Positions 14,029-49,715 of a stretch of DNA of 64,000 nt are shown in pieces. Origin of the DNA: an uncultured virus (IMG/VR IMGVR_UViG_3300033121_000902) (taxonomy: Duplodnaviria > Heunggongvirae > Uroviricota > Caudoviricetes). The stretch is from the IMG/VR virus record IMGVR_UViG_3300033121_000902; one strand, given 5' to 3'. Within the stretch, counting starts at the first letter, position 1. Every line of letters starts with the position of its first letter. Both the position numbers and the translations under genes were made by a program. The notes beneath the pieces were generated by a model. That model did not search any database. It saw nothing but the letters and a program-made list of their open reading frames with translations, and was not told where the DNA came from.

Positions 14029-14053
14029 GTTCAAAGCAAGCTTTGCTTGCTAG

Positions 14054-15964: not shown

Positions 15965-16207
15965 TTGTGGCGAAGCCACTAGTTCTTCGCATTCAAAAAC
16001 TTATTCGCAATGTCGTCAGCAACACCACGACTACGAGCAGCACTACCACCGATATACGCACGCCCATTAGCTTCATACATTTCTACAACAAAGTATTCAC
16101 TATCGTTATACATTTCAACTCGGCGACTCTTGTTAGTCATAACCTTGCGTAGCGATGATGTTTCCATTGCGTTCTCCTGTAAACTTGGTTAGTTGCTTCA
16201 CACTTAC

Positions 16208-16235
16208 ATTATAGCATGCTTTGCATGCTTGTCAA
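16208..16235 (-). promoter_or_regulatory. sigma70-type promoter, GCATGC-spacer class
   Basis: TTGACA-AGCATGCAAAGCATGC-TATAAT; flanks near-identical to the 14001 promoter. Confidence 0.75.
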
Positions 16236-16245
16236 GTTCATTTTA

Positions 16246-18385: not shown

Positions 18386-18548
18386 AAATTTTTTCTGTCA
18401 ACCTCACTTAAACCACTTACGTCAACTACCCCTGAACCTTACGGTTTCGTAAGCTTTCTATAAACCCTAACCCCTCAAGAAGTTCTGTCTACCAAAGTCT
18501 CTTTTTTCTCCGGGGGGAATAGAAAAATAATTTGACGTAAGTCTAAAA

Positions 18549-21466: not shown

Positions 21467-22222
21467 TTATACTACTGTTAAAGAAATCTTTTTTGACCCG
21501 CGTCCATATGTCCCGACACCTTTCAATGCTACTTTTGCTTTTTGTGCTTTACTCCCTTTAGGCTGAATACCATGAATGAGCAGAGCAAAATCAGCCCCGA
21601 AGTTTTGGGCGTGCCAGTCGTCATGGTCAATTTCTAAATTGTGACGCTCCGCTTCCTCTGCTGAATAGACTACCTTTGCAGCCCGCAAATTATATTCACG
21701 AATTTGCGAATCGAAACGTGAGCCTAGACTAGCGGTTGGAATAAAATTCTTCACCGTTCCCGGTACATGTCCGTTTCCTACTTCGACAATGCGAGCGAGC
21801 CAAACGGGAATATTTTTCGTGTAGAAATAAAAAGTTTTTTCTGGCAACAATTGTGCTACGAGAATCCATGCGTCGAAATAATCTTGATTAAAGAAATCTC
21901 CAGATACATGAATACGAACATGAGTAAATTTTTTGGGCAGACTAGCAAGAATTAAATCTCGCATTTGTTCTACGGTTTTTGATTTTTTCAACAAATCAAA
22001 ATTGTTCCACCGTGATTCACGAACATTAGGAAATAAACTTTCCGAACTAGCGGAGAAGCAACGAAATAAAGTTTCTTTTCCGTCCGTAATTTTTCCGGTT
22101 TTTCTATTCGCTTTTGAAAGGCATTCCAATGCACCTGGACAAGTATATCCAGCCGGTAGCGAAAATGTAGCGACATGTTTGTCTAGTTTAGCATTACCTT
22201 TGCCGAAAGATAGGAGCTTCAT
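21467..22222 (-). CDS. GP88-like phage protein (Cys-containing, radical-SAM-related fold)
   Basis: GNAKL...FSLPAGYTCPGA..C...CFS...RIHVSGDFF...YFYTK. Confidence 0.75.
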   Translation of the reverse strand: MKLLSFGKGNAKLDKHVATFSLPAGYTCPGALECLSKANRKTGKITDGKETLFRCFSASSESLFPNVRESRWNNFDLLKKSKTVEQMRDLILASLPKKFTHVRIHVSGDFFNQDYFDAWILVAQLLPEKTFYFYTKNIPVWLARIVEVGNGHVPGTVKNFIPTASLGSRFDSQIREYNLRAAKVVYSAEEAERHNLEIDHDDWHAQNFGADFALLIHGIQPKGSKAQKAKVALKGVGTYGRGSKKISLTVV

Positions 22223-22276
22223 TACATTTTCCTTTGTTAGTGGTGTTAGACTATTATAGCATAAATTGCTAGTTAG

Positions 22277-22735
22277 TCAATTCCGATTTTCCGAATAGTA
22301 TAACACTCCCTTTTGTGGTCCGCAAGCCACACAATAACGTAGTCCATTATACTTAGGGCGGCGATGCATATGGAATTTTTTTTGGCAACCTTGACAAGTA
22401 GCTTTCCATCTTCCCTCAGGCATTTCTATTACTTGACTATCATAACAACGTTTCGGATTTGCTCCGATACGCATACAGACTAGTTTCCATTCCCAACCGT
22501 GCCCCGCCTTGAAACCAGCAATAGCATGGGCGATTTCATGTAAGATTGTATCCTTAATATCTTCGAATTTATCCATGTTTTTTTCAACATAGAAACTACT
22601 CAAAGAAATAACTTTTTTTCGATAATTGCATAATCCGGCACGACGTTTTGCCCTATCGTACTCGAATCGCCAGTCATTAAGACCGTGCTGTTTCATTAAT
22701 TCAATAGCTACAGTAGTAATGTCATTAGTGTTCAT
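22277..22735 (-). CDS. SprT-like zinc metalloprotease with C-terminal Zn ribbon (likely start MNTND)
   Basis: RRAGLC, TILHEIAHA, GHGWEW, CQGC...CVAC; the ORF's longer 5' extension overlaps its promoter. Confidence 0.88.
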   Translation of the reverse strand: MNTNDITTVAIELMKQHGLNDWRFEYDRAKRRAGLCNYRKKVISLSSFYVEKNMDKFEDIKDTILHEIAHAIAGFKAGHGWEWKLVCMRIGANPKRCYDSQVIEMPEGRWKATCQGCQKKFHMHRRPKYNGLRYCVACGPQKGVLYYSENRN

Positions 22736-22873
22736 GATTAAATTATAACAGGTTAACGCCAGGAAGCAAGGGGAGAATGGAAATTTGTTTTGTGCGGGAA
22801 TGGTATGGCGTTGGCCCGCCCGCTTGCGTTTCAAACATCTGTCAAACGGATTTCTTTGGGCGAGACAAATTGT

Positions 22874-23401
22874 TCAGTCTCCATCATGTAAATACGTCTG
22901 CAAAAATGAATCTACTAGCTTATATAGTTCAATTACTTTATCTACGGCTAGCTGCTTGATTAACCGTCGATGAATTACCATATCGGTATTTACGCAATGA
23001 TGCCAAGGATTGCCTAACATACTTAACTTAATAGGTTGTTCAGCGACCAACTTATCAAAATGTTCCGCTCTTTCTTTCTCAATATTATATCTAACTTGCT
23101 CAGCATTTTTCTTAGCCTTGCATTGTTCTATATATATAACTCTATCATTAATAGCTTTGATAATTTTATCGTATAGTTTAGTCTTCCAATCATAGCCTGA
23201 TAGAGCCATCCATGATACATGTTGGTCTTTTAGATTGCAAGTTATATTAACTTGTTTGCACGTATCACTATCTCGGTCGTAGTAACTTCGTCCACGCTTG
23301 TTTAAGCCTATACCATTAGGCAAAGCTTTATCAATTTGTTTAACGCAACCAATCGTTGGTTGTTCGGGCAGACTATCAATAAGTTCTTTAAGCGTAGCCA
23401 T
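22874..23401 (-). CDS. hypothetical protein
   Basis: 175-aa ORF in operon with 23403..23591. Confidence 0.55.
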   Translation of the reverse strand: MATLKELIDSLPEQPTIGCVKQIDKALPNGIGLNKRGRSYYDRDSDTCKQVNITCNLKDQHVSWMALSGYDWKTKLYDKIIKAINDRVIYIEQCKAKKNAEQVRYNIEKERAEHFDKLVAEQPIKLSMLGNPWHHCVNTDMVIHRRLIKQLAVDKVIELYKLVDSFLQTYLHDGD

Positions 23402-23683
23402 GTTAGCCCACTTTCATTGTAAGATTGAGCATGCGTGCAGTATTAACCAAGTATTCTACTTGTTTTCTGTTAATGCTATTTACTGATGAGACTACATTAC
23501 CTTGCGGGCAGATAAGGTAGTACCATTTTTCGTTCTCACCGTGAATTTTGGGTTGCACTTTGTACATTTCTTTCGATTCCACATTTTCCATAGTTGTTAC
23601 CTCCTTTCGTCACATTATAACAGAAAGCTTCGCTTTCGCAAGGCCAGAATTTAGTTTTTCTTAGCGTTCCGCCCCCCGCTACG

Positions 23684-23730
23684 AAAAAATCCCTAGCTCC
23701 ACAGTTAGGAAGCTAGGGACTTTTTACTTT
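23684..23730. terminator. probable bidirectional terminator after DUF932 gene
   Basis: TCCCTAGCT...AGCTAGGGA stem flanked by A-run and T-run. Confidence 0.7.
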
Positions 23731-23732
23731 TA

Positions 23733-24788
23733 TTATACGGCCAACATTTCCAAAGCAACCTTTAAAGCTTTGCTGTTCAAAGCTTGATTTTGACCAAACC
23801 ACAGCGAATTCATTCGGGTATCGTTATTGTGACCTTTCCGGTAATTGATGTACTCATTCACAGCATTGTAAAGGGTCCATAGAGAACCGCGAGTAGAAAG
23901 GATATTGCTTCCGAGACCACTTTCAAAATTTTTCGTGACTTCTTCAATAGTACACTTTTGATTTTCTTTTTCGTGAGTTAGTGCTAGTTGCACCATTTCG
24001 CGAGCCATACCGGTATGTGACTCATGAATATCACAAATTTCACCGATAATGTTTTTGGAACGTGTGCTAATCTTGCTGTCGTCTTCTTCAAAATCAAAGA
24101 CTAGCTTGACGTATCGCTTCAAGTCGCTGAAATTAACATTCTTATTCGCGAGAAGGCGGTATTGTTCAGCCGTCGCCTCAAATTGTTGGTCCGCAATGTT
24201 GATGATATCGCGAATCTTTTCAAGATTGAATTCGACTTCCTTAGTATGACGAACGCGAATCAATTCGCTAGCCTTATCCTTATGGGCAAGAGCAAGCGTA
24301 TTCGCACAGACTACGCGAATCGGAGTGAAGCCGACACGCACGGCAGTCGTGCCATCATGACTATTGCTGAGCAATACGAACTTGACGATTTCATCATCCT
24401 TGCCGACTACGATATTCGGACGATTGATTTTCGCCAGTACCCAAACCTTTCGTCCTTCCGCTAGACTACCAGCAGTCTCGAAAGAAGCTTCTTTCGCAGC
24501 CATGAATGGAGCGAAGAAATCGAAAGCAAACTTATTTTGCAAAGGATGTGTATTCGGTCCAACAATACCCAAGACTTTCTTATTATCCGAGCGTCGGAAA
24601 ACCTTACCGAAATCAGCAAGCGAAGCACCATCTGACGGACACTGAGGAATCTCTTCTTCCACAGTCCAATCAAGACCGGCATCGACAATCGCTTGTGCCG
24701 GACTATCAGGAGCTTCCGTAAGGACTTTGCCCAGACCATGCCAAGGAGTTTCCTTAACCGAGAACATGCTTTCAACTTGATGAGCCAT
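23733..24788 (-). CDS. DUF932 (TIGR03299-like) phage/plasmid protein
   Basis: MAHQVESMFSVKETPWHGLG, AGLDWTV, FETAGSL..GRKVW, NSHDGT, TPIRVVCANTL, W..YNAV.EY. Confidence 0.92.
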   Translation of the reverse strand: MAHQVESMFSVKETPWHGLGKVLTEAPDSPAQAIVDAGLDWTVEEEIPQCPSDGASLADFGKVFRRSDNKKVLGIVGPNTHPLQNKFAFDFFAPFMAAKEASFETAGSLAEGRKVWVLAKINRPNIVVGKDDEIVKFVLLSNSHDGTTAVRVGFTPIRVVCANTLALAHKDKASELIRVRHTKEVEFNLEKIRDIINIADQQFEATAEQYRLLANKNVNFSDLKRYVKLVFDFEEDDSKISTRSKNIIGEICDIHESHTGMAREMVQLALTHEKENQKCTIEEVTKNFESGLGSNILSTRGSLWTLYNAVNEYINYRKGHNNDTRMNSLWFGQNQALNSKALKVALEMLAV

Positions 24789-25157
24789 TGTAGTTTCCTT
24801 TTCACTAGGGTTATGTGTTGGTCACTTCTATACTCAAATTATAACACGTTTCGCATGGATTGCAATAGCTACGTAAGGAAAAAAGAAGGGAATTTTTTGG
24901 GCGGGGCGGGAATCGCTAACAAATTTTTTGCAATAATTCTTTACCGTGAATAACTTCTTGCAGTTCTGTTAAGGTATATTCTCCGCGAGGTTTACGTAGA
25001 ATTCCTGGTTTACTACGATTATATGCAGTCCCATATTGAGTAGCATATGAGCCATCATCATACATAACATATATGATATGATTAGTATATAATGCTGATG
25101 CTGGCGAAACTTCACAAAAGATAGTTTCTCTTTCGTAATGTTGTACATGAATACTAC

Positions 25158-25547
25158 TCATTTTGTCACCATAAAACCAATTTCGGAACTATACCAAAAC
25201 TTGGAACATCCAAGTTCACGCAAAATACTATGGCAGCATTTACATGGTTTACTCATGCGGCAATCACCGCTTCTCGTTAACCTTATATTGATAGCCTCAA
25301 AAGGTTTTTTGCCTAGTAAACCTTTAGCTTTTTTATAAGCTTCAATTTCCGCGTGCATCTTAGGACACGCTACGCGAGAATGATAACCAAAATGCTTTTT
25401 AGGTTCTTGACTAGTATTCGTGCCCCATTCGACTATACGATTATCTTGCACGATAAAAGTATAATGCAAATAGAACTTATATTGAGCGTGTTTCTCAATA
25501 TGGTCGATTGCGGTCTTCAGAGCGTGATGAATGAGCGATTTCTTCAT
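25158..25547 (-). CDS. zinc-dependent cytidine/nucleotide deaminase-fold protein
   Basis: HAE and SKPCKCC motifs. Confidence 0.8.
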   Translation of the reverse strand: MKKSLIHHALKTAIDHIEKHAQYKFYLHYTFIVQDNRIVEWGTNTSQEPKKHFGYHSRVACPKMHAEIEAYKKAKGLLGKKPFEAINIRLTRSGDCRMSKPCKCCHSILRELGCSKFWYSSEIGFMVTK

Positions 25548-26046
25548 GACTTACATATTATAGCATGAACTACGTTCATAAGCAATAGAGAAAAAGATTT
25601 TTTAGCGTGTGGCCTACCGGCCTACACTAAAGATAGGTCATGAAGATTGTATAAAAACACTAAGCTTTTTGCATGAAAGTCATAATTTCCAACTGGTGTT
25701 TCTACAGTTATTAATTGTTCCGAATTATATTTTCCGTCAATAACTTTCCCGTAAGAATTTTCCCAAGCTATTTCAGCTTTCTTTGCCGCTCTATTAGAAA
25801 TAGAAACAGTATCTCCATTTTTCAGTTCGTAGCCGTGACGGTCTTTCATATTGTTCTCCTTGTTGGGTTTATTATAGCAGGTGCTTGCTAGCATGTCAAC
25901 GGGCAATCGGAGAAAATTGGCAAAGACAAGGCGAGTTCCGCCCCGCTACTTCCGATGACGTTTCTTTGTCCTATGCTTATTACTTACCTTTGGAATAGGT
26001 AAAAGAATTGGTAAAACACCTAGTACAATTGCTGATGAAAAAATTT

Positions 26047-26238
26047 TCATTGTTTCCTCTTATGTTCACCGCACCACATATCTAACGATACTTTAGGCCA
26101 AGCGTGTCTAAGGTCGCCATTGTCTTTCATTACTGGAGTTGGCGGATTACGTCTGCATATACCTTCGAAAGGATTTTCAAAATCCTTATGTCTAGTAAAA
26201 TATATACAGTTTTCACATCTTTCTATTTCTTCGTCCAT
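26047..26238 (-). CDS. small Cys-rich phage protein
   Basis: CENC...CRRNPP...WP.V...WCGEH. Confidence 0.6.
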   Translation of the reverse strand: MDEEIERCENCIYFTRHKDFENPFEGICRRNPPTPVMKDNGDLRHAWPKVSLDMWCGEHKRKQ

Positions 26239-26841
26239 GTCTTATCCACCTTTACTCGTTTCTTAGTGATTTTTCGCAAAGCTTTCGCCATCATATTCAT
26301 CATGAAAAAAGCTTCTTCTCTCTTGCCAGTAGAATAGCCAAATTGGAATGATTGTACTCCAATTGTTAGCGTAGGTTTACGTTCCCTCGCTGTTTCGGCT
26401 CCTCTTTTTTCAAGATGAATTTTAATCATTTTATTCCTTGTATTGATAGAAAAACTTTTTTCCAAATTTCTCTACATAAAACCCTTTCTCATCAAAGGAA
26501 AGAACAGTTTTGCCCGCTTCACAACCAATAGGAACAAAAGCTTCACCGCCATGATTAGCAGAGAAGAACCATAGACCATTATTCGCGAAGCGGAGAAAAG
26601 TTCGGGCGTCACCGCAAAAATCAATGCGTGGCTTCTCTGCTAAGTATTTCAGGAGTTCGTCTAAATTTGTTGGTTTTTTCATACCCATTTTTCTATTTCC
26701 TTCTTTAGGTCGCGTTTAACTTCAACTATCCAAGAATCTAGTTCTACTATTTTTTGGTATAGAGAATACCATTCATCTAAATTACCAAATAAGTTTTTTT
26801 CTGATTATCCCAACGTCGTACACTGTAGTACATTTTCCTTT

Positions 26842-27516
26842 TCATGATTCAATAACCTCGATAGGGATTCCAGGAAATTTTTCTTCACAAAAAGATTTTC
26901 CTTTATCATAATCTTTAAAGTGACTTAAAACAATATCTTTAGTTGTATACAAAGATATAGTATCCATGTTTGCCGTTTTATGTTTGAAAATTTTAATCTT
27001 GTCAATTTCAACCGAACAAGTAGGAGTCGGCCCATTTTCGCGGTGAACCAAATCGTAAAGGTTAAGATGATGGAAAGTTTTCGCTAGTGGATTATACCAG
27101 AAATTTCCCATACAGAAAGAGCAATAAACTAATTTCCTTTTCTCGTCGTATTTTAATTCCCCAACGCCTTCTTCGTCTCCTATGTTTCTGCTTACTAAAT
27201 AATATTCTTGGTTCGTTAATTTATAGTGATGAATAATATCTTCTGCTTCATATACGGTTTCTCGTCCTACATAATCCCAACATCGTTTAGTAGATACTTC
27301 CCTAAAATATTTTCCTCTCTTGTCTTCTAAAAGAAACATTTTTTCATCTTTATAATAGTCGCCATGAGACTTGACTAAGTAAACATTACCAACTTTTAAC
27401 TCAGAATGATTTAAAGGCTTAGCCATGATAGACCTTTCAGAGGGAACTTTCCGTGGAAAGTAGTCGCTACGAAAATCATTGATAATTGGTTTTTGTGTCA
27501 GTGTGACTGTCCACAT
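26842..27516 (-). CDS. hypothetical protein (possible internal start MAKPL)
   Basis: 224-aa ORF. Confidence 0.5.
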   Translation of the reverse strand: MWTVTLTQKPIINDFRSDYFPRKVPSERSIMAKPLNHSELKVGNVYLVKSHGDYYKDEKMFLLEDKRGKYFREVSTKRCWDYVGRETVYEAEDIIHHYKLTNQEYYLVSRNIGDEEGVGELKYDEKRKLVYCSFCMGNFWYNPLAKTFHHLNLYDLVHRENGPTPTCSVEIDKIKIFKHKTANMDTISLYTTKDIVLSHFKDYDKGKSFCEEKFPGIPIEVIES

Positions 27517-29222
27517 TTGCTAATCCTCGATATCGTTTGTTTGCTCGTCAGAGCTATCATACCATTTTCCAGAGCAGATATCAATACCCTTTCCGGCTTT
27601 ATCTGCCATTTCAGCACGTTGACTATACAGCTTAATGCGACGTTCGCGAGCTTCCGGGGTATCTTGCTTCGCCAGCGTAGTCGCTTGACGCAGCACGTTC
27701 CCAAAATCACTAGGAATTCGACGTTCGCCCAAAGCAAAGTTTTTCTTTTTCATGTTCGTTGCTCCATTTGTTATACTAACAATATAACCGAAACGGGGAA
27801 GCGTGTCAACAGATTTTCTAGCGAAAATCGAAAATAGTTGGGCGGGCGGCTATCCGCTAATTCCTCTTCCTTTCCAGGCGATATTTGGATATTCGCCGAT
27901 TTTTTCCAAGGTTTCGGTATAGATTCGTTCGCCGTACTCGTTAATACGTCGAAGATGAATAAATAACCTTGATTCAATTCCTCCGTTGCGAATGAGATTA
28001 CGGTACGCATTATCCGCTTGAATCAACGTATCGTAAGACTCTACATCTTGCGACCATTTTTGGAAAACATATACGATAACATACTTACTGTACATTGCGA
28101 TTCTCGCTGTTAAAATGGTCAAAAATCTTTTTAGCGGTTTCTGGAGAAATACCACAAGCGAATTTGTTAGAAATAGCAATCTGAATATTATAAGGAGAAG
28201 AAAAATCTTCTTTTTTCAGACGCTCCTCAATTTCATGCCAAGTGAGATACATCATACTATTTCCATGCAAAAGTTTGTCATTTTTGTAGACAACGCAGTA
28301 CCAAACAAATCCCAAAGATAGTTGCATTCTTCGGCGATAACTTGGATTCCCCACGCAACATGTTCAGGAATGTTAAACGTCATATCGCCTTTTTCGGTCC
28401 ATTTTTCTAATTCTTCTGTGCATTCAGCAAGTAGACTAGCTAATTCGTGACCGTGCGAATAGCGATGACCAACAAAGTCGATAGCTTGACGTTCGGAATA
28501 AGTGAGGGTGAGTTGATACATGATTCGCTCCGTGTCGTGTGTTGTTCTATGCTAGTATTCTACTATATTTCACTACGCGAATCAAGAGGAAAAAAGAATT
28601 TTTCTTGGCGGGTCGCTCTCCGCTATTCAAACCTGAAAGAAATATTATGGATTTTCATATAACCAGCGATAAACATACGCTGTTGAAAATCGGTAGCATT
28701 TGGGCAACAACGCCGAAAATCTTCCAAATGACCTTTGATATCATTAAGTTTGCAAATCATTTGCGAGATAGGCATATCTCCGCTCTTAACAAAAGATTGG
28801 CAATGTCCTTGTTTGATGTTAGAACCGCCGTAAACGCCATCATCTTTTTCGTTCATGATTCACCTTTGGTTGAACTAGATTGGGAGTGATGTTGATAATA
28901 GAATTATAGCACGCTTTGCGTGTGAAATCAATAGGAAAAGTACGCTTTTTAGCGGTTCGCCGCCCGCTTGCTATCCTAGTCGGACGCAAGCAGAGCGGTT
29001 AGGGAGTGACATTACATATAAGGCATATCATCATCGCCGTTTACGCTTTGGTCACTTTCCCAATCATCTTGGTCATTATTGTTAGCTAACGGAACATCGT
29101 CCATAGGTAAAATCAATCCCGCTTGTTCACCCGTTAGCCCTTCGCCGCAACAATCGCAGCAATCATCATCATCAAGAACACGTAGTTCGCCGCACTCTTT
29201 GCATTTACCACGATTACCCATG

Positions 29223-29573
29223 TTAGATTTCCTTGTTACAGATTTTACGGATATATTTTTCAACCAATTCTTTTGCTACTCGCAAGTCAATAATACCTAA
29301 GCGTTGACGAACGTCTTTGACTACGCGAACCTTAGTATCAGACAAAGCATACCCCTGCCCATCAACTTTAGGATTACCGCTTTTAAGCGTTTGAATTTCC
29401 GCGTAGGTTAGTTCGCCCACCATTTGGTTATTTTGTTCAACGAACTTGTTAAGTATTTTTAAAGAAATTTTTTCGAAAGCTTCCACCGTCTCAGGCAAAT
29501 CGTATTGAACGTAAGCATCACCCATAGCAACAATAGTTTTGCAAACGTCGATAATCTTTTGTGCGACCAGCAT
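29223..29573 (-). CDS. protein with C-terminal ribosomal bL12 (L7/L12) CTD-like domain
   Basis: KVRVVKDVRQRLGIIDLRVAKELVE parallels the bL12 CTD consensus K(I/V)xVIKxVRxxTGLGLKEAKDLVE; directly downstream of tRNA-Glu. Confidence 0.65.
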   Translation of the reverse strand: MLVAQKIIDVCKTIVAMGDAYVQYDLPETVEAFEKISLKILNKFVEQNNQMVGELTYAEIQTLKSGNPKVDGQGYALSDTKVRVVKDVRQRLGIIDLRVAKELVEKYIRKICNKEI

Positions 29574-29609
29574 AGTAGAAATCCTTAGCAAAGAGGGTTG
29601 TGACTAAAT

Positions 29610-29682
29610 TACCACGGACGAGAATCGAACTCGTATCTTCGGATTGAGAATCCGATGTTCTGAACCGTTGAACCACCGTGGC
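29610..29682 (-). tRNA. tRNA-Glu(CUC)
   Basis: GCCACGG/CCGTGGT acceptor, anticodon arm TCGGA-TTCTCAA-TCCGA, own promoter at ~29695-29722. Confidence 0.92.
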
Positions 29683-31227
29683 GTTCATGTATGTATTATA
29701 TCATGGTCTATTAGTGAAATCAATAGCAAAAAAACTTTTTTAAGGCGTCGGCCCGCTCGCTACTGAAATACCATTACTTTTGAATTACATTCATACTTCT
29801 CATAGAAAAGCTTTTCAGCTTCCTCTTTAGTCTCACAATTGAATCTATCCTGAATATGATAGAAAATTCCAATTGCTCCGACCTTGCGAGCATTCGCACA
29901 TGATACGATGAATTCCATAGCTGGTTTATCCAATGAGTTCGATGTGATAGCTACGCAAATTGTTGGGCCATCCTGAAACATTACAGTATTCTATCCCTTC
30001 TACAAATTCAGATTGTCCGATGAATGTTACAATACCTTCAGCTGTTTGTACATTTTTACATGTGACATAGTTAAAAGAAACTTTGTCTCCGAGTTTCACA
30101 GGTGAACCGTTGCGGTCTTTCATGATTTAACTCCTTGTTAATCTATATTAGATTGTAGCATTGATAAGCAAGGAAGTCAATGGGAAAATTTATTTTTAAG
30201 CGGTTACCCGCTCGCTATACCACTTCTTTCCAAAAATTCACAATAATGAATTGTACTTTGATTGGTTTATTCTTGTATATAATAAAATGCTCTCCATTCA
30301 TTCTATATACTGTACCTTCATATTTTTCATGCTCTCTGTTGATAAGGAAGACACATTCATCAACATGTTGAACATCGTATTTTTCCAATAGTTCGCGTGC
30401 TGATTCAGGCATGTTTTTTATCCTTATCAAAAAAACTTTTTACATCATTAAATTCTTGCGAGTCCTTAATAGTAAACACAGCATGCAAATCATTGGCTTC
30501 ATCAATTCTTTTCAATAAAGCCTCAACAGCAGCAGGAAGTTCAGCCTCAGTAATAACCTTCCTATAAGCCCCGCAAGCCCAACATTTGTATTTGTTGGAA
30601 ATGTTGTAGCCTTGAACGTCGAACTTCAGGCCGCAATTTTTGCAAATCATTTTCCATACCCTTCCTTGCTAAGCGTTTGTTTTTTCAAACGTCGAAGTCT
30701 ACGCCTAGCTTTTGATTTCATTTTTCTGGGTGAGCAGTTATATGGGTTACAGCATTGGCAATGCCAACCACCACAACCTCCATCAAGTTTTGGGATACAA
30801 AAATAATCTTTTTTCAGTGACATATTAGCCCCTTCCGCCGATTCGAACGGCATTTCCCGGAGAATATTACTTCCGGTCGGGTTCCCACTCCCATGAGTCG
30901 GGTTATGTACTAACATTATAGCCTAACGGACTAACGAAAGCAATAGTAAAAAAAGATTTTTTAGCGTTTGCCGCCTCGCTAAGTTTTTAAACAAGCAGTA
31001 AGGCAAATCATAAACAGGAAAAGTAAAACTCCGCATACAGCGTCAGGATTAAATCCGTTCACTATAATTTTGCAGGTGAGTACTAATCCAACAAAAACAG
31101 TGCATAGGAAAAAGAAAATGCGGAATAACCAAATCATATTATATCTCCTTGTTAGGTACATTATAAACGGTTTGCGTTGTGAAGTCAATAGGAAAATCTT
31201 TTTTTGTGGCGTTTAGCCACTCGCTAT

Positions 31228-31515
31228 AAAAACGAAGCGACGACCAAAAAGGCCCGAAGGCATCATTCTTGGTCGTCTTCGTCTAGTTCAGCTTGCAGAG
31301 AAGCGTCAACACTAGTATACATAGTGGGCATATATTAGTGTATACTACTTGCCCAAGGCAGTATACAGATAATGGATAGTTTGTCAATACCCTCGCGGCG
31401 TTGTTTGCCCTACTTCTGGTCGTACCCTGGTACGCACAGAGCATAGTTCAACTCGTTTCGCTTTAGGAGCGACCTTTGGGTAACTAGTTCGCTGTCATTA
31501 TCATCAGCGTTGACT
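31228..31515 (-). ncRNA. candidate ~290-nt structured non-coding RNA
   Basis: Own promoter TTGCAT-N16-TATAAT (31548-31521), 10-bp closing stem, internal hairpins, terminal hairpin with TTCG loop plus T5; no RBS-led ORF seen. Confidence 0.55.
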
Positions 31516-31916
31516 TATGTATTATAGCAGACTTACGCTTAAATGCAATAGAAAAAAGCTTTTTTTCTTAGCGTGCCGCTCCACTCTCACCTATATAACT
31601 TTTCCTCATAGAATATAGGGACGCCTGAACCGGACTCTTCCATGTTGGATTTTTGGCGTTGAGCAACGATGGCCTTCCTTGCTAATTCTGTTGCTCTCTT
31701 TGGTGACCGATGCAAAACTTTTGCTCGGAAAGAAAAGTATTTTCCGTTTGGATTGCAAAATGGGCCATAAGCGTCAAGAATTTCGCAAGTGAAGTATGTT
31801 TTCATATTAATATGATAGACGATTAGCTCTGACTTGTCAATAGTAGCTTGCTAGAATTATTGATATTGGCGTTTGCCCGCCCGCCACGCGGCAGCGGATT
31901 GGATAGGGAAATACTT

Positions 31917-32132
31917 TTACCAATCGCAATCATCATGGAACATACCATAATCTTCATCAGTTCCCCAACCAGCCGACGCAAGCGTGTCAGCATCAGCCTC
32001 AACATCAGACATATGGTCTTCAAATTCCAAATCCTCATAGATAGGGAATTCATCTTGTTCGTCAAGCTCAAGCTCAAGACGAACGTCATTACCTTCAGTG
32101 TACGCATCTTCAGGACCGTAGAAATCTTCCAT
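31917..32132 (-). CDS. highly acidic small protein (possible DNA mimic)
   Basis: 27 of 71 residues D/E, one R, no K; LASAGWGTDEDYG motif; RBS AAGGAG and own promoter. Confidence 0.7.
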   Translation of the reverse strand: MEDFYGPEDAYTEGNDVRLELELDEQDEFPIYEDLEFEDHMSDVEADADTLASAGWGTDEDYGMFHDDCDW

Positions 32133-32261
32133 AGCAATCTCCTTGTTATACTATCATTATAGACTTGTAGTCTACTATAGTCAAGAGATTTAATTGAATT
32201 TTTATTGGTAAGGCGTTTGCCCGCCCGCTACTGCACGATTGTACAGTAGCAGCGTAGCCGC

Positions 32262-32528
32262 TTAGTTAGCGTGGCAGCTTAGGCTGATAGGTTCAAATGC
32301 GTACTTCTCGCCGAGTTGCCAAGAAAGAATTTCCAGCATATCATCAATCTCACCTTGATTGTGAAGCTGGATAACTTGGCGATGATGAGGATTCTTGAAT
32401 AGGGAAGCAACGTCAGTATGTTCCTCGTTAGTGTTTCCACCTACGAACATCGACATGTGAGTAGCCCGATGCGTAGCTTCAATGACGACGGGGAAGATGT
32501 AGCTACCGATTTCCTTTTGCATGACCAA
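32262..32528 (-). CDS. hypothetical early protein
   Basis: RBS GGAG, own promoter, ends at an extended repeat. Confidence 0.6.
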   Translation of the reverse strand: MVMQKEIGSYIFPVVIEATHRATHMSMFVGGNTNEEHTDVASLFKNPHHRQVIQLHNQGEIDDMLEILSWQLGEKYAFEPISLSCHAN

Positions 32529-32699
32529 TCTCCATACGTTGTTGTGTGTTATCTACTACTATTGTAGGCTAATCTCTCTCACATGTCAATCCCTTTTATG
32601 CAAGAATCTCGCAATTTCTTTTGGCATAGCGTTTGCCCGCTCGCTAGTGTACAGGTGTGTAGTAGCACACCCATACACGTAGCGTAGCCACACAACACA

Positions 32700-32915
32700 C
32701 TACACACTACCCCAACCCATAGGGATAACGCTCGGAGGACCAGCGATATACGCAGTATTGAATTGTCGATGCTCGTTATCACGATACGCATCGCGTCCAA
32801 TCAGCATCGTCTTACCATTCTTCGCTTTCGTCACCTTCTCAACAGCAACGCGGCGAACCTCACCCTTGTAGCCGAACTCGATAACCTGATTAATGAATTG
32901 CTCGTACATGTTCAT
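32700..32915 (-). CDS. stand-alone WYL-like small protein
   Basis: IEFGYKGEVRRV...LIGRD..RDNEHRQF....I. Confidence 0.55.
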   Translation of the reverse strand: MNMYEQFINQVIEFGYKGEVRRVAVEKVTKAKNGKTMLIGRDAYRDNEHRQFNTAYIAGPPSVIPMGWGSV

Positions 32916-33364
32916 TCTCCTTAGTGTTGTGTGTTGCTCTTGCTTACACTATCATTATAGCATGGAGTACCACGCATGTCAACTAGTCTAGTAGATTTTC
33001 TTCGAAAATCTTTTGGTATGGCGTTTGCCGCCCCGCTAGGCGTTAAAGTCAATGATTTTCTGAAGAATATCGCGAATTTCTCCTAGTTTTTTATTAGCTT
33101 CTTTTTCTCTCATCGAATCGCTTACAGCGACCACGCAACAGTACGATGTATCGTTTGCTACGCCATTATCATGATATACATTGATATTTTGGCAAGCTTC
33201 ACGCAGGGCACGAATTTCTTCTTTGTTCAACAACATAGCAAGCTCCTTTTGTTATACTCTCATTATAGACTTGTAGTCTAGTAGAGTCAAGAGGAAAATG
33301 CGAATTTTTATTGGCATGGCGTTTGCCCGCTCGCTATACAGTTGTACAGGAGCGGCGTAGCCGC

Positions 33365-33517
33365 TTAGTTAACACCCCAAACCGGACCCTGAATCTTCGA
33401 TTTCGTGAAGGATTTGTGTTGCCCGTTTTCGATGCACAACAGATACGAACCACGGTCCTGAACCAGTTCGACAATGCGGGTTTTGCCGTTGTAGGTGAAA
33501 GTGATGTTCTTGTTCAT
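33365..33517 (-). CDS. stand-alone WYL/Sm-like microprotein (start MNKNIT)
   Basis: ITFTYNGKTRIVE...YLLC...HKSFTKSKI, RBS AAGGAG. Confidence 0.5.
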   Translation of the reverse strand: MNKNITFTYNGKTRIVELVQDRGSYLLCIENGQHKSFTKSKIQGPVWGVN

Positions 33518-33641
33518 GTTCGACTCCTTAGTGTGTGTGATGTTCTGTACTCTTATATAATAGCATCTGGAATTCATAAGTCAAGGACTTTACCAAAAAA
33601 ATGTGAGATTTTTATTGGCACGGCGTTTGCCCGCCCGCTGT

Positions 33642-33716
33642 TCAAGCGTTCAGTAGTTCATTGTACTTATCAATAGCGATGTTGATTACGATGAAACCGA
33701 TGATGAAGTAAGCCAT
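33642..33716 (-). CDS. 24-aa hydrophobic micro-ORF
   Basis: GGAG RBS, MAYFIIGFIVINIAIDKYNELLNA, own promoter, ends beside the repeat. Confidence 0.45.
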   Translation of the reverse strand: MAYFIIGFIVINIAIDKYNELLNA

Positions 33717-33818
33717 ACGAACTCCGTTGTGATGTTGACATATACATTGTAGGTTAACTCGTTAGTGAAGTCAATAGAGAATATTTATTTTTTATTGGCA
33801 CGGCGTTTGCCCCGCCGC

Positions 33819-33989
33819 TTAGGTATTTACACATACGTCATAAGCTGTGTAGCCAGTGATGCTTAGCATCGGAACGAGGTATTGGAAGAAAGAGAAATCG
33901 AGTCCATGCACGCAGATGACGCAACCGCAAAGGAATACGACGAACAGGAAGAGGATGACCAGCCAAGCACGCATGAGGAAGAGAACCAT
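33819..33989 (-). CDS. 56-aa membrane microprotein
   Basis: AAGGAG RBS then MVLFLMRAWLVILFLFVVFLCGCV...; TAA abuts the repeat. Preferred over the ORF-track frame 33838..34050. Confidence 0.6.
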   Translation of the reverse strand: MVLFLMRAWLVILFLFVVFLCGCVICVHGLDFSFFQYLVPMLSITGYTAYDVCVNT

Positions 33990-35263
33990 TAGCTAACTCC
34001 TTTGTGATGTTGTATATATACAGTATAGAGTGCAAGCTAGCTAATGTCAAGCTGAATTGGTAAAAAAAGAAAAGAATTTTTTGGCACAGCGTTTGCCCAC
34101 ACGCTAATATAGACAGGGGTGGGGTTTTTTTGTTTGCTTGGTGAATGTGCGGCGGCAGTCTAGAAAATGCAGGGGGTTCAAAAACAACAAGCGGCGATTA
34201 CGCCGTAGTATCACTCAATGCAATAAGGTAAAAACAACAAGGAGGCTTTGCCTCCAAGTATTACCTAATCTACTCCGGGAAAGTAAATGGCGAAGCCTTA
34301 GTTGTTTAATCTCCCAAGCAGTTCTGCTAGAGACGTAGTATACAAATAGACATAACTCATTCTAGTTTTCATCGCTACAATAACACACGGTTTATTATCT
34401 TTTATGCCGTTCATGGCATAACTTACATACTTTCTATTAATCATAACGTCTTCGACTTTAATATATAAAGGCTTCGCCATTTTAATAACTCCTGAAAAGA
34501 ATTCTTTTATATTCAATTTCTACTTTGTTACATACAGGAAATTTAACTAAATCTTTCGGTAATTCATCGTGACATACCGCTCCCCATGCCACTTTACCAT
34601 CTTTATAAAACACATTTCCAGTTATTCTAATTTTACTCATATTTAAAACTCCTAAAAAATTTCTTCGTCATGACGATTATCAAAAAATCCCGGTCCAGTT
34701 TTCCACGCTAATCTACACAAATAAAACCACACTAACAAGTACACCCACCAATATTGTTCAAAAATCCGCAACAATACACAAGATAACATTTCAACCTCTT
34801 GATAAAAAAAATTTTTTGGAGTATTATTATAGTGTATCGTCCCAAAACGGATGGTCAAGCGGAGAAGTAAAATCATCGGAAAGGTCTTGAGCAAATTCAC
34901 TCACAGCTTTATTGTGTTCCTTAAAATCTTTCTTTTTTCTAGAAGGCTTTTTTTTCTTTTTCATTTTCCCGAAGATTTCCTTTCTCAATTCATAAATTGT
35001 CAACTGATTATTGGGTAGGCGAAGGGAGTTTAGCCCTTCAAGAATTTTGAGCAGAGAAGTGCCCCTTCCTTGCTCATCTATTATAAATTTTTTTTCTTTG
35101 AGAGAAATTATCATGGCTGATTGTAATAAGAAAAATGAAACTGACACTCTGTACAAATTATACACGACAGAAGGTGAGCAGTCAAGAGCAAGAACCGAAA
35201 AAGATTTAAAAAAAGAAGACGTATCAAAAGAAGAAGGTTTAAAACTAATTAGGGAAGCGTTAA

Positions 35264-35884
35264 ATGAACATACCTGTGGGAAAAACGGAAGCGGAAGTTG
35301 TAGAGACAATACAGAGAATAACGAAGAAGATAGCAAAGAAATTTAAGTTTGGATATCATACAAACGCGGATATGGAACAACAAGCTTTTATATACGGAAT
35401 GAAAGCTCTTGATAAATATGACACATCTAGACCTTTGCCTAATTTCTTATATCGTCACATTCTTAATAGATTGATTAACTTTAAAAGAGATAACTTTAAA
35501 AGAACAGATTGTCCATGTATATTATGCCATAATAAAGAGAGTGGTTCTACTGGACATGAAGATAAACAGTATTGCAAAAGTTTTATTAAGTGGCGAGACA
35601 GAAACTATAATAAGATGAGCGTTATTGTTCCTTTTAATATAACTAATATAAATGATGAAAAAGAGAAAAGAACTAGAATCAATTCGTCTGCTCTTATTGA
35701 TATTCAAATTGAAGAACTATTAGAGAAGATAGACCGCGATTTACCAGTCGAGCTACGTTCCTTTTATCTACAGATGAGACAAAAGATAAGCGGAATTCCT
35801 AAAGCTAGACGAGACGAAGTAATAGAAGAATTAAAAAAAATACTAGGCGAGGATTTATGTCAGAAAGTAAAAGAGGAAGATTAA
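35264..35884 (+). CDS. phage sigma-factor-like protein (region 2-like) with Cys-rich insert
   Basis: DMEQQAFIYGMKALDKYDTSRPLPNFLYRHILNRLINFKR resembles sigma70 region 2; CPCILC insert; first clear gene of the plus-strand arm. Confidence 0.7.
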   Translation: MNIPVGKTEAEVVETIQRITKKIAKKFKFGYHTNADMEQQAFIYGMKALDKYDTSRPLPNFLYRHILNRLINFKRDNFKRTDCPCILCHNKESGSTGHEDKQYCKSFIKWRDRNYNKMSVIVPFNITNINDEKEKRTRINSSALIDIQIEELLEKIDRDLPVELRSFYLQMRQKISGIPKARRDEVIEELKKILGEDLCQKVKEED

Positions 35885-36690: not shown

Positions 36691-37707
36691 ATGAATACAG
36701 CACTTATTTTCGGTATTACTGGACAAGACGGTTCATACTTAGCCGACTTGTTATTAGAAAAAGGTTATAAAGTATATGGTGTAAGTCGTCGAGTCAGTGT
36801 ACCTACTGACTTAAGAATTAAACATCTAGAAAAAAATACTTTTTTTGATATTATCCAGGGAGATATCACAGACCAGTCTAGTGTAGCAAGAATAATTAAA
36901 TTAACAGAACCTCAAGAAATATATAATTTAGCAGCACAATCACACGTTGGTATATCATTTAATGAACCTTGTCACACATGGGACGTAACAGGGAAGGGGT
37001 GTCTGAATATTTTGGAGGGAATAAGAAATTCGTCGAATCCCTTTCTTGCTAAGTTTTACCAAGCAAGTTCTTCAGAAATGTTTGGCTCATCTTTTACCGA
37101 CACGAACGGTAGAAGATTTCAATTCGAAAATACTTTATTCATGCCTCAAAGTCCATATGCTGTAGCAAAATTAGCAGCACATCATTTAACAAGACTTTAT
37201 CGTTATAGCTACAAACTTTTTGCTTGTTCTGGAATTCTCTTTAATCACGAATCTCCTAGACGCGGCGAAAATTTCGTTACACGAAAAATAACCAAATACA
37301 TCGGTTCTTTAATAGCTCATGGTGACAAAATTGGAAAATTAAAACTTGGTAATATTAATTCGTATCGAGATTGGGGACATGCTAAAGATTATGTATATGC
37401 AATGTGGTTAATGCTTCAGCATGATAAACCAGACGATTATGTTGTATCAACAGGCGAGACTCATTCAGTTAAAGACTTCTTGGAGAAAGCGTTTAATTGT
37501 GTAAAATTATCATGGACAGATTTCGTTGAAATTGATGAAAATCTCTATAGACCAGCAGAAGTAGATTATTTACGCGGTGATTCTTCCAAAGCAAGAAATA
37601 TTCTTAATTGGTCACCAAAATATTCTTTTGACGATTTAGTAAAAGAAATGGTGATGAATGATGTTGAGCAAGAAAGGTTGTCAAATGGAGGAAAGAGATT
37701 GGAATAG
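36691..37707 (+). CDS. gmd: GDP-mannose 4,6-dehydratase
   Basis: GITGQDGSYLA, NLAAQSHV, YQASSSEMFG, SPYAVAK, ILFNHESPRRGENFVTRKI, RDWGHAKDYV. Confidence 0.97.
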   Translation: MNTALIFGITGQDGSYLADLLLEKGYKVYGVSRRVSVPTDLRIKHLEKNTFFDIIQGDITDQSSVARIIKLTEPQEIYNLAAQSHVGISFNEPCHTWDVTGKGCLNILEGIRNSSNPFLAKFYQASSSEMFGSSFTDTNGRRFQFENTLFMPQSPYAVAKLAAHHLTRLYRYSYKLFACSGILFNHESPRRGENFVTRKITKYIGSLIAHGDKIGKLKLGNINSYRDWGHAKDYVYAMWLMLQHDKPDDYVVSTGETHSVKDFLEKAFNCVKLSWTDFVEIDENLYRPAEVDYLRGDSSKARNILNWSPKYSFDDLVKEMVMNDVEQERLSNGGKRLE

Positions 37708-48299: not shown

Positions 48300-49715
48300 A
48301 TGAGACAAATTCCTATATATAAAGCTGAAAGAGAAGCTGGTTTAGCAGATAAAATTCTGACTGCTAATTCTATAGCTTATCTTACAAAAATAGAAATTGA
48401 TAAAACACCAAACAAGAATAAGATTCTTACTTGTGCCGCTATCAAAAATCATAATTGGAATGATAATCAAATTGATTTGCATTATCTTAAAGATATTTTA
48501 GTTTCTACTGGTATGAATGGTAATGATGAAATCTTTTTAAAAGAAGAGATTTGGGCAGCGAAGTCAACTCCAGAAGATAAACCTTTTAATCTTGGACATA
48601 ATTGCAAAGATATTATTGGTCACATCACATCTCAATATTTAATTGATAATAATGGTAATCTATTAGACGAGAATCTATCTATAGACGAATTACCAGATTA
48701 TCACGTTGTAAGCACATCTGTAATATATAAATATTGGGCAGATAAAGAAAGAATGGAGCAAATAAATAAAATTATAGCCGAGATTGAGACGGAAAAGAAA
48801 TGGTTCGTTTCAATGGAAGCTTTATTTGCTAATTATGATTACGGTGTTTTTAATGAAAAAGGGGAAATGGGAATTATTCCTCGAAATGAAACTACAGCCT
48901 TCTTAACAAAGCATTTAAGAGCTTATGGTGGAGAAGGCAAATACGAAAACTATAGACTAGGAAGAGTTATAAGAAATATAACCTTTTCCGGTAAAGGTCT
49001 TGTTGAATGTCCAGCTAATCCGAACAGTATCATTTTTAATGACGTTACTCCATTCAAAATACAAGCCTCTGAAAAAATAGAAGGGGTTGTAGCTTCTTTG
49101 GGGTATTCTAATAGTGAAGAAACAAAAGATAAGGAGAATTCAATGTCAGTAGAACTTGAAAATCTAAAGAAAACAAATACAGAACTCGAAAATTCTTTAA
49201 AAGAAGTACAGACAGCTAAGGCTAATCTTGAAAAACAAGTTAAAGAAATGGAAGTTAAATTAACAGAAGGTACTGAAAAAGAAAAAGTATTAACTGCTAA
49301 ATTGACTGACACTGAAGCACAGCTTAAAGCTTCAAAAGATGAGTTTAAAGCTTCTACAGATAAGCTTAAGACAGTAGAAACTGAACTTAATACTATCAAA
49401 GCAGAAAAAACTAAGAATGAAAGAATTTCTGCACTTAAAGGTATTGGAGTTGAAGAAGCTAAAGTTACTGAATTATATGAAATTTTATCTGAACTTTCAG
49501 ATGCTAAATTCAATGATTATGTTACAAAAGCAAAAGTTGCTCCTAAAGTAGAAGAAAAACCTAAAGTTGATGTTAAAGTTTTGGAAAATGTTGAAGCTGG
49601 TAAAGATGTTGGTTCTGGTAAAGTAGATGCCGAAGGCAGCACACTCCAAGCCACTCAAGCTAAGATTGCGGAATTTTATAAAGCAAGTAAAAACAAAGAA
49701 ACTGCAAAGAATTAA
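48300..49715 (+). CDS. prohead protease with C-terminal scaffold
   Basis: N.ND.F, KPFN.GH, VSME, FSGKGLV..PANP motifs, then a long K/E-rich coiled coil. Confidence 0.75.
   Translation: MRQIPIYKAEREAGLADKILTANSIAYLTKIEIDKTPNKNKILTCAAIKNHNWNDNQIDLHYLKDILVSTGMNGNDEIFLKEEIWAAKSTPEDKPFNLGHNCKDIIGHITSQYLIDNNGNLLDENLSIDELPDYHVVSTSVIYKYWADKERMEQINKIIAEIETEKKWFVSMEALFANYDYGVFNEKGEMGIIPRNETTAFLTKHLRAYGGEGKYENYRLGRVIRNITFSGKGLVECPANPNSIIFNDVTPFKIQASEKIEGVVASLGYSNSEETKDKENSMSVELENLKKTNTELENSLKEVQTAKANLEKQVKEMEVKLTEGTEKEKVLTAKLTDTEAQLKASKDEFKASTDKLKTVETELNTIKAEKTKNERISALKGIGVEEAKVTELYEILSELSDAKFNDYVTKAKVAPKVEEKPKVDVKVLENVEAGKDVGSGKVDAEGSTLQATQAKIAEFYKASKNKETAKN
49143..49715 (+). CDS. nested in-frame scaffolding protein
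   Basis: Internal AAGGAG-N6-ATG in frame at the start of the coiled-coil half. Confidence 0.6.
   Translation: MSVELENLKKTNTELENSLKEVQTAKANLEKQVKEMEVKLTEGTEKEKVLTAKLTDTEAQLKASKDEFKASTDKLKTVETELNTIKAEKTKNERISALKGIGVEEAKVTELYEILSELSDAKFNDYVTKAKVAPKVEEKPKVDVKVLENVEAGKDVGSGKVDAEGSTLQATQAKIAEFYKASKNKETAKN

Follow-up and report, generated by a model that had tools for sequence, protein, structure and literature searches.

Promoter-early stem-loops (PeSLs) are known from T4-type myoviruses (Arbiol et al. 2010, PMC2839356; Comeau et al. 2014, PMC4122927). Their stem-loops terminate transcription in a reporter (PMC2839356), and shuffling of the units is proposed to proceed by general homology with no dedicated recombinase (PMC2839356, PMC4122927). 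Within the literature searched, cassettes of this type are described only from T4-type myoviruses. The locus considered here is an array of 21 units on the minus strand of a 64,000-nucleotide stretch of DNA (the window) from an uncultured virus of the Caudoviricetes (IMG/VR record IMGVR_UViG_3300033121_000902). Between 22.8 and 34.1 kb each unit places, in this order, a GC-rich box, an A/T tract, a sigma-70-type promoter (TTGACx-16/17-TATAAT) and a ribosome-binding site (RBS) ahead of a small gene, a tRNA-Glu gene or a candidate non-coding RNA (ncRNA). Judged from its sequence, the array is probably an early, hyperplastic accessory-gene region of a siphovirus-like phage, made up of composite cassettes that resemble PeSLs and are not of the integron type.

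Integron cassettes are promoterless and depend on one common promoter, with a tyrosine-recombinase integrase beside the array, and their attC sites are imperfect palindromes of 57-141 nt. The host-takeover module of Bacillus phage SPO1 has many strong early promoters, and we know of no repeated boundary box or sigma-54-type motif in it. Promoters of the sigma-54 (RpoN) class are silent until an ATPase acts, and a GAFTGA loop is the motif of sigma-54 activators. The SPO1 module is described as 'A cluster of 26 genes' (PMC6873191), the sigma-54 promoter consensus is quoted as mrNrYTGGCACG-N4-TTGCWNNw (PMC2725144), and the Rfam family GP20-b (RF03003) is a hairpin with an A-run on its 3' side, located ahead of phage GP20 genes (PMC10690425).

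The repeated unit

A 16-nt core, defined as GCG-R-GCGGGCAAACGC, was sought upstream of 30 minus-strand sigma-70-like promoters and of one more at 33584. Units were recognized at 21 places: 14 have cores with at most three mismatches, three have cores with four or five, and at four (promoters 31548, 28585, 27809 and 24865) the box is a degenerate GC-rich stretch that was judged by eye. None of the ten minus-strand promoters below 22.3 kb has the core, a single six-mismatch match there being spurious. With up to two mismatches, GCGGGCAAACGC itself occurs 12 times in the window against 1.12 copies expected, a number reached in none of 100 shuffles, and all 12 copies lie on the minus strand between 22808 and 34100. 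A preliminary description of this DNA had put the repetition at about 20 times, and the count of 21 units agrees with it.

In the 14 cores with at most three mismatches the distance to the -35 element is fixed at 28 nt, 38-39 nt or 19-21 nt. The first two spacings define a long form, type A, of which there are nine copies, eight at 31.9-34.1 kb and one at 22.8 kb; on alignment, their box, A-tract and TTGAC are invariant. The third defines a short form, type B, with five clear copies at 28.9-31.2 kb. A- and T-runs lie between box and -35, and every one of the 21 promoters fits TTGxxx-16/17-TAxxxT, 13 of them at 11-12 of the 12 consensus positions. Read on the plus strand, the long form consists of a T-rich stretch, TGGCAC/T, five bases and TTTGC, which is the -24/-12 layout of a sigma-54-type promoter; the short form has T's at the position of the GG.

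TA precedes the core in 11 of 17 cores and completes a TAG. At six units (34106, 33336, 32646, 32230, 31225 and 23685) the upstream gene stops elsewhere than at this TAG, which is therefore part of the repeat itself. The ten open reading frames (ORFs) that had been named as ending at the repeat all do abut or overlap a box or its degenerate form, and the one ending at 25946 is to be added; among the ten, 27850 closes a doubtful ORF with a TTG start, and 31587 and 24916 meet a degenerate box. Units 4 and 7 have in common about 126 nt (33249-33371 in unit 4) that are 85-93% identical, starting from the last codon and stop of two unrelated upstream genes. About 1.9 kb (25946-27809) is an ordinary five-gene operon with no internal units, and inverted repeats in 31.8-34.3 kb amount to just four short pairs. 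Coordinates are collected in Table 1.

Outside the window, the 16-nt core gave 37 single matches and no arrays in IMG/VR, which are taken as chance, and a 24-nt box pattern gave no match in JGI metagenome contigs. Relatives of the portal gene are common in IMG/VR (563 confirmed at 40-57% identity), and 80 of these portal-anchored loci, 951,785 bp in total, were kept as a set of distant relatives. In one of them, L111, a GC box, GCGGGCGGGC, occurs three times on the early-gene strand (793, 1966 and 2875, minus), each time after a related stretch ending in AG, and one copy adjoins a sigma-54-type box. The GC box alone may be older than the window's phage.

Each unit would give the gene downstream of it a strong promoter of its own of the host sigma-70 type, an UP-like A/T tract and an RBS, and the GC box with its ready-made TAG would mark where the preceding gene ends. 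Whole genes could then be deleted, duplicated or swapped by homologous or microhomology recombination, either between units or at unit edges, and every gene would keep a working start and stop. As 60-125 nt are repeated along the array, no dedicated recombinase would be needed.

Table 1. Features of the array and its surroundings, with positions in the window; the cargo given for a unit is that which its promoter is predicted to drive
Feature	Position	Strand	Core, promoter and stop codon	Predicted cargo or remark
Unit 1, type A	34022..34106	-	core 34089-34104; TTGACA-17-TATACT; after two tandem terminators	56-aa membrane-like gene 33819..33989
Unit 2, type A	33746..33820	-	core 33803-33818, abutted by TAA of 33819..33989; TTGACT-17-TACAAT	24-aa ORF 33642..33716
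Unit 3, type A	33557..33640	-	core 33623-33638, 0 mismatches; TTGACT-16-TATTAT	50-aa gene 33365..33517
Unit 4, type A	33262..33371	-	core 33319-33334; long repeat common with unit 7	66-aa gene 33036..33236
Unit 5, type A	32954..33038	-	core 33021-33036; TAG is stop of 33036..33236; TTGACA-17-TATAAT	71-aa gene 32700..32915
Unit 6, type A	32561..32646	-	core 32629-32644, 0 mismatches; TTGACA-17-TACAAT	86-aa gene 32262..32522
Unit 7, type A	32156..32268	-	core 32213-32228, 0 mismatches	acidic 71-aa gene 31917..32132
Unit 8, type A	31812..31890	-	core 31869-31884; opposite-strand -24 part degraded; TTGACA-17-TATCAT	72-aa gene 31587..31805
Unit 9	31521..31587	-	degenerate GC box and A/T palindrome; TTGCAT-16-TATAAT	candidate ncRNA
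Unit 10, type B	31160..31225	-	core 31209-31224, 20 nt to -35	52-aa membrane-like gene 30979..31137
Unit 11, type B	30915..30981	-	core 30964-30979; TAG is stop of 30979..31137	92-nt leader, then 30647..30823, 30405..30650, 30215..30412
Unit 12, type B	30152..30217	-	core 30200-30215; TAG is stop of 30215..30412	29926..30123 and 29760..29981
Unit 13, type B	29695..29762	-	core 29745-29760; TAG is stop of 29760..29981	tRNA-Glu
Unit 14, type B	28903..28969	-	core 28952-28967	
Unit 15	28557..28625	-	degenerate GC hairpin box; TAG is stop of 28623..28856; TTGATT-17-TAGAAT	
Unit 16	27781..27852	-	degenerate GC box; TTGACA-17-TATATT	five-gene operon down to 25946
Unit 17	25871..25948	-	divergent box, 5 mismatches; TAG is stop of 25946..26050	sole box flagged by terminator scan
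Unit 18	25557..25624	-	divergent hairpin box abutted by TAG stop of 25622..25849; TTGCTT-17-TATAAT	
Unit 19	24838..24918	-	degenerate C-rich box after TAG of 24916..25161	
Unit 20	23614..23681	-	box with 4 mismatches	right after canonical hairpin and T-run terminator 3' of DUF932 gene
Unit 21, type A	22742..22825	-	core 22808-22823, 1 mismatch; TTGCTT-16-TATAAT	SprT-like gene
tRNA-Glu (anticodon CUC)	29610..29682	-		cassette cargo of unit 13
Candidate ncRNA, 291 nt	31228..31518	-		-91.6 kcal/mol, z -3.59, better than all 200 shuffles; ends in long hairpin and U-run
Two tandem canonical intrinsic terminators	34192..34255	-		GC stem and T-run; close operon 34298..34964 before array
Exact TGGCAC-N5-TTGC boxes	34082-34096, 33796-33810, 33616-33630	+		
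TGGCAT boxes	33312-33326, 32622-32636	+		one mismatch
TGGTA boxes	33014-33028, 32206-32220	+		
Phage sigma-factor-like gene (Sigma70_r2)	35264..35884	+		first conserved rightward gene; sigma-54-type boxes (window and relatives) face toward it

The box and the ends of transcripts

A short GC hairpin folds in 20 of the 21 copies of the box, down to -13.6 kcal/mol. The box was rejected as a canonical intrinsic terminator: an A-run and not a U-run follows its hairpin, and just one box in 21 is flagged by a terminator scan, which finds nine sites in the region against 11.1 expected in shuffles; the same scan does flag the true terminators of the window, at 34255 and 34205. At three places a canonical terminator lies close upstream of a box: the pair just named, one behind the ncRNA near 31250 and one behind the DUF932 gene near 23700. 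The Rfam scan reported tRNAs only, apart from a sub-threshold match to GP20-b at unit 14 (28941-28992; 27.7 bits against a gathering score of 36.2). Short and divergent copies retain a hairpin whose stem sequence differs, which argues that the small post-stop hairpin is itself under selection, and the hairpin common to the copies may mark or protect the 3' ends of transcripts.

Carried further, this would make the GC box a transcript-boundary element and nothing else, either a weak attenuator or a 3' hairpin that guards the message after cleavage in the A/U tract, the role proposed for the stem-loops of T4-type PeSLs, and its sigma-54 likeness would be functionless. Such a role would suit a post-stop hairpin present even in short and divergent copies that are without the -24 GG, the compensatory look of their differing stems, the resemblance of one copy to the hairpin and A-tract of GP20-b, and the reporter results with PeSLs (PMC2839356). 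The missing U-tract and the single box that passes the scan count against it, the canonical terminators ahead of the box at three places would make it redundant, and a hairpin of 3-6 bp fails to explain why the long form has kept its sequence or why relatives keep TGGCAC-N5-TTGC with a variable spacer (see below). A boundary function to the exclusion of others is unlikely.

Gene gain and loss in close relatives

Contigs of four public sequencing runs were compared over 21500-35500 at a likeness of at least 80%. Runs X4 and X7 hold relatives that are 80-99% alike; X2 and X3 contain the window's own phage (99% or more alike), in fragments too short to be informative on structure. Among the joints listed, X4 and X7 give five clean indels, in every one of which entire genes or entire units are missing. 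In two of them both junctions lie in sequence common to two units. X4 is without 33355-33815, that is two units and two ORFs (33354>33816), and the junction falls in a TAAGCG common to both ends, which is a stop codon together with the hairpin edge. It is also without 32138-32915, two ORFs and two units (32137>32916), with a 7-nt junction overlap that we read as the AAGGAGA of both RBSs in the repeated promoter-RBS segment. At a third joint, 29592>29779, X4 has neither box, promoter nor tRNA-Glu (about 29605-29778) and its upstream gene ends differently, as if the tRNA-Glu cassette had brought its own gene end and TAG; the left end is near the tRNA 3' end, 90 nt from the unit. X7 is without exactly the 81-aa ORF 24916..25161 (24917>25160), the ends being the box TAG edge and the ATGA overlap with the upstream gene, and it is without the 58-aa ORF 30647..30823 (30678>30827), one junction being just upstream of the start codon. 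The joints 22201>22331, 22867>23057, 23106>23199, 23260>23346, 23696>23785, 23822>24243, 28372>28459 and 31242>31331 were not counted, as they represent divergence or replacement of sequence or have one side just 21 nt long.

The junctions fall in different parts of the unit (RBS, stop codon with hairpin, exact gene edges). Five of the ten endpoints are inside units, which occupy 20% of the region, and seven are within 20 nt of one; by our own arithmetic the binomial probability of at least five in ten at p 0.2 is about 0.03, a figure inflated by selection against breaks inside genes. The expectation that relatives would differ by gene gain and loss at or near the repeat, for which the gene-order comparison had been proposed, is supported by the five indels.

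It could be argued that the array is a static set of small early units in which illegitimate indels are filtered by selection, the repeats being uninvolved. Two of the five clean indels do track gene edges (30678>30827, and the right end of 24917>25160), 29592>29779 has its left end by the tRNA, tight gene packing leaves only intergenic breakpoints viable, and the cargo is nearly without paralogy. Against this are set the two indels with both junctions in sequence common to two units (the 7-nt RBS overlap and TAAGCG), the 126-nt duplication of units 4 and 7, which starts at the last codon of unrelated genes, and the concentration of half the endpoints in a fifth of the sequence. A static set is on balance quite unlikely.

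Several points tell against exchange of PeSL-like cassettes and need to be kept in mind. The sample is small, about five clean events in short metagenome contigs, and all of the runs compared are assembled contigs, which drop rare forms, so that circles cannot show. Only one end of the indel 24917>25160 touches a unit, and 30678>30827 has its left end within the 3' end of an ORF, away from any repeat. Selection alone would favour breakpoints between genes. The box hairpins are weak, with z at or below -2 in just nine of the 21, and their register shifts between copies. Exchange of whole genes by way of the repeated units is still the probable reading.

A sigma-54-type box on the opposite strand

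Nine long copies overall carry the sigma-54-type box, antisense to the cassette genes. Of the 17 positions compared with the published consensus TTGGCACGGTTTTTGCT (PMC2725144), the window box matches 15. With at most one mismatch, TGGCAC-N5-TTGC occurs eight times in the window against 1.99 expected, and five of these, all on the plus strand, are at 32622-34096. Within the literature searched, no paper was found on arrays of sigma-54-type boxes in phage early regions.

The 80 distant relative loci have the exact box 22 times on the portal strand and five times on the other; the corresponding counts are 0 and 0 for a reversed control, 0 and 1 with N4 and 0 and 0 with N6. Five whole relatives (120-231 kb) have 13 exact matches, clustered, against none for the control, and 12 of the 13 have the portal orientation on our reading of how the loci are oriented. 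In 36 loci with a sigma-factor homologue, 36 of 41 relaxed matches are within about 5 kb upstream of the sigma-factor gene, at a density about 28 times that downstream, and 28 of the 36 upstream matches point at the gene. As in the window, the relatives' boxes stand back-to-back with leftward sigma-70 promoters, 30-67 nt apart. In two relatives (L097 and L110) the last box is immediately 5' of a rightward ORF run, which in L097 reaches the sigma-factor and p276 homologues. The relatives' box has a spacer that varies and flanks that are kept, and since it is not an inverted repeat a hairpin fails to explain its conservation. Matches with N3 and N7 spacing in relatives (6 and 19) were rejected, as four of the six and all 19 are one conserved structural-gene coding site and not regulatory.

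Taken on its own, the long box is tentatively read as a binding site of host sigma-54 polymerase, a possibility that we prefer to the others for this element and hold with some reserve. Bound polymerase might remain a silent closed complex, a roadblock that would insulate neighbouring cassettes. Alternatively the box might be an activator-dependent rightward promoter, from which transcription would run antisense through the early genes to the sigma-factor operon and so serve as an early-to-later switch; the terminator pair at 34.2 kb is on the minus strand and would let plus-strand transcription through. A combination of the two is conceivable and rather doubtful: a clade-wide timing switch of three sigmas (host sigma-70, host sigma-54 and the phage sigma factor), triggered by a phage or host ATPase and travelling with the cassettes as part of the repeat, in which silent sigma-54 complexes would first insulate and then fire antisense into the sigma-factor operon. 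If the boxes are used, they would provide the phage with a gated switch or an insulator, and rpoN would be a host factor for the clade.

A good deal weighs on the other side. Eight to 12 short or degenerate copies are without the -24 GG, so the function common to short and long copies is not sigma-54 binding. The window copies descend from each other and thus amount to one observation of sigma-54 likeness, and the relative loci are homologous, so that their box counts are not independent. No sigma-54 gene was found in the five whole relatives, and no convincing enhancer-binding ATPase either, two matches to PF00158 being of about 15 bits; as PF00158 matched all 14 control genomes, archaea included, it is uninformative as an activator test. 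The window's AAA_5 protein has no GAFTGA loop and is not a recognizable sigma-54 activator. Neither an enhancer or upstream activator site nor an IHF site was identified. The activator might come from the host.

In the relatives L111 (1913-1947) and L113 (4043-4076), head-to-head overlapping box pairs form a palindrome of about 35 bp, which a dimeric DNA-binding protein could account for as readily as two promoters could, and which is a further point against sigma-54. Three relatives (L091 1565-1700, L097 1087-1230 and L110 676-800, plus strand) have box pairs followed by TGCCA-N3-TGGCA palindromes, often two in a row, and these may be an operator or a set of RNA hairpins. The long box could accordingly be the operator of a phage-encoded or other protein, distinct from sigma-54, that recognizes TGGCA-type half-sites, as the head-to-head pairs and the adjacent palindromes of the relatives would allow. 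At the window's boxes there is no such palindrome, TGCCA-N3-TGGCA having one match in the window against 0.88 expected and that one being located away from the boxes, and single boxes keep the exact -24/-12 spacing, with N4 and N6 all but absent from the relatives. An operator of this kind is improbable.

The idea, close to one in the preliminary description, that the array is an integron-like capture platform, with the GC repeat as an attC-like site for a recombinase encoded elsewhere in the genome, draws on the unrelated same-strand small genes bounded by a conserved stop-touching repeat and on a recombinase search that covered window ORFs only, and it is highly improbable given that each cassette has its own promoter, that junction positions differ, that a box of about 20 nt with a 3-6-bp stem is far from a 57-141-nt attC, that there is no attI or common promoter, and that the ORFs scanned include no integrase or resolvase. 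As had been noted beforehand, an integrase is missing from the window: the integrase and resolvase families have no member among its ORFs of at least 120 aa or in the cargo, the sole 'integrase' label, on an 81-aa zinc-ribbon protein, being rejected since the match covers part of a PHROG profile and is weak (E 9e-4). The related proposal that the GC repeat provides the homology for recombination stands in part. Two junctions do lie in unit repeats; the long form of the same element is also a sigma-54-type box, which is kept in distant relatives whose cassettes otherwise differ in sequence, which that proposal had not foreseen.

Cargo

The cargo had been called unrelated small genes with a tRNA and an ncRNA, and this description holds. 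All-against-all blastp of 37 proteins gives one pair below E 1e-3, so there is almost no paralogy, and of the 26 small cargo proteins (33819-24916) 24 are without a Pfam match and 21 without a PHROG match (E up to 0.01). The candidate ncRNA (31228-31518) contains no ORF with an RBS and belongs to no Rfam family; it has its own promoter at 31548 and an internal sigma-70-like site at 31387. The 72-aa gene 31587..31805 has its ATG 6 nt past the -10 (TATCAT) and no RBS, and its mRNA may be leaderless. In the 92-nt leader (30824-30915) folding is not stronger than in shuffled sequence (z -0.49).

The distal cargo with long boxes (31917-34106) has a GC content of 0.38-0.49, with five of seven genes at 0.44 or more and GC at third codon positions up to 0.65, against an average of 0.335 for the phage's other genes, which suggests (recent) import of this distal sub-block. 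A 71-aa cargo protein (31917-32132, minus) is very acidic and matches phrog_36991 (E 1.2e-5); the 17 residues at its C terminus are found again, 82% identical, in the relative L090. It could be an early protein of the DNA-mimic type. A 116-aa cargo protein (29223-29573, minus) has a sub-threshold likeness to the C-terminal domain of ribosomal L7/L12 (E 0.0087; 16.8 bits against a cut-off of 25.9). The cargo may have a host-takeover or anti-defence role, and its small ORFans, the very acidic 71-aa protein among them, are a natural place to seek such functions.

The portal, unlike the cargo, is conserved in distant relatives. In tblastn against the distant-relative loci just one of the 37 window proteins gave a marginal match (36 without DUF932). 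The DUF932 query matched only the seven loci that had been fetched with it and was hence set aside; these loci were rejected as relatives, being unrelated phages without arrays. The flanking genes for the sigma factor, p276 and an ERCC4 nuclease are in the same order in relatives, at 32-41% identity among the matches listed.

The phage and the rest of the window

The window comes from an uncultured tailed phage of large size and has seven tRNA genes. Genes are directed leftward from about 35.0 kb to position 1 and rightward from about 35.1 kb onward, so that the switch is at about 35.0-35.1 kb. A small rightward ORF (35114-35263, plus) lies immediately 5' of the sigma-factor gene, and between the sigma-factor block and tail-fibre-like genes is one for a GDP-mannose 4,6-dehydratase (36691-37707, plus; E 9e-115), probably for auxiliary sugar modification. 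In relatives the sigma-factor and portal genes lie about 5 kb closer together than in the window. Besides the portal, the window encodes a tape-measure protein of more than 1,900 aa (PhageMin_Tail, siphovirus-type) and a T4-type RNA ligase. The terminase large subunit (42593-45763, plus) is interrupted by an intein with a LAGLIDADG homing-endonuclease domain, for which tblastn matches are phage helicases (phages of Staphylococcus, Enterococcus and enterobacteria), probably to the inteins of those helicases. On the minus strand a VWA-domain protein (1-726) and an AAA_5 (MoxR-like) ATPase (8185-9345) are encoded about 7.5 kb apart. At 9408-18401 (minus) there is a second class of promoters, TTGACA-16-TATAAT (one TAGAAT) with a conserved GTAAGTGTGAA-like start region after the -10 and no GC box, which may be a separate temporal or strength class.

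Near and distant searches of 50,697 phage records gave no nucleotide match to the window, and neither the portal protein nor the product of a putative capsid ORF (48300..49715) has a significant protein match in PHROG or in the phage records. The p276 protein has no relative in JGI metagenome contigs. The window sequence is complete in one public run and partial in runs from river, sludge and wastewater. GTDB genomes include four distant portal relatives, binned to Chitinophagia, Rickettsiales, Flavobacteriales and Silvanigrellaceae; as these metagenome-assembled relatives are in four different lineages, no host can be named.

Comparison with known systems

The likeness to PeSLs extends to units of about 100 nt repeated with an upstream stop, an A/T tract, a near-consensus sigma-70 promoter, a stem-loop, an RBS and a start; to their concentration before ORFans in a hyperplastic region; to indels among close relatives at or beside the units; and probably to recombination by general homology with no dedicated recombinase known. 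The analogy with these phage cassettes had been drawn at the outset, and promoter, A/T tract, clustering in a variable region and indels all accord with it. The differences are also clear. The window's phage is not T4-like, having a PhageMin_Tail tape measure, an unmatched portal and putative capsid and a sigma factor of its own. Its GC element is conserved in sequence, is fixed upstream of the A/T tract, carries a TAG, is without a U-tract and, in the long form, doubles as a sigma-54-type box on the opposite strand. For PeSLs, terminator activity and mini-circles have been demonstrated.

Compared with sigma-54 (RpoN) promoters, the long box has GG and GC at the canonical 10-nt separation, in TGGCAC/T and TTTGC, with a T-rich stretch upstream. 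It differs in being in a phage early region, in many copies, antisense and back-to-back with sigma-70 promoters, and its -11 to -2 stretch is GC-rich and conserved. With integrons the array has in common unrelated small genes on one strand, each with a 3' repeat; in the window every cassette brings a promoter, attI and a common promoter are missing, no integrase is in view, and the box, about 20 nt with a 3-6-bp stem, is not an imperfect palindrome of the attC type and has no single crossover point. The SPO1 module, of a phage that is unrelated, is alike as a block (here about 11 kb) of small early genes of mostly unknown function with many strong host-type promoters. Unit 14 aligns with GP20-b as a hairpin and UAAAAA-AGCGUA; that is one unit in 21, below the gathering score, and no GP20 gene is downstream.

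Of these systems, it is PeSLs that the array appears to work like, although it does not belong to the T4 set. That an unrelated lineage of phages has the same design points to a general solution by which fast-changing accessory genes stay expressible while they are swapped.

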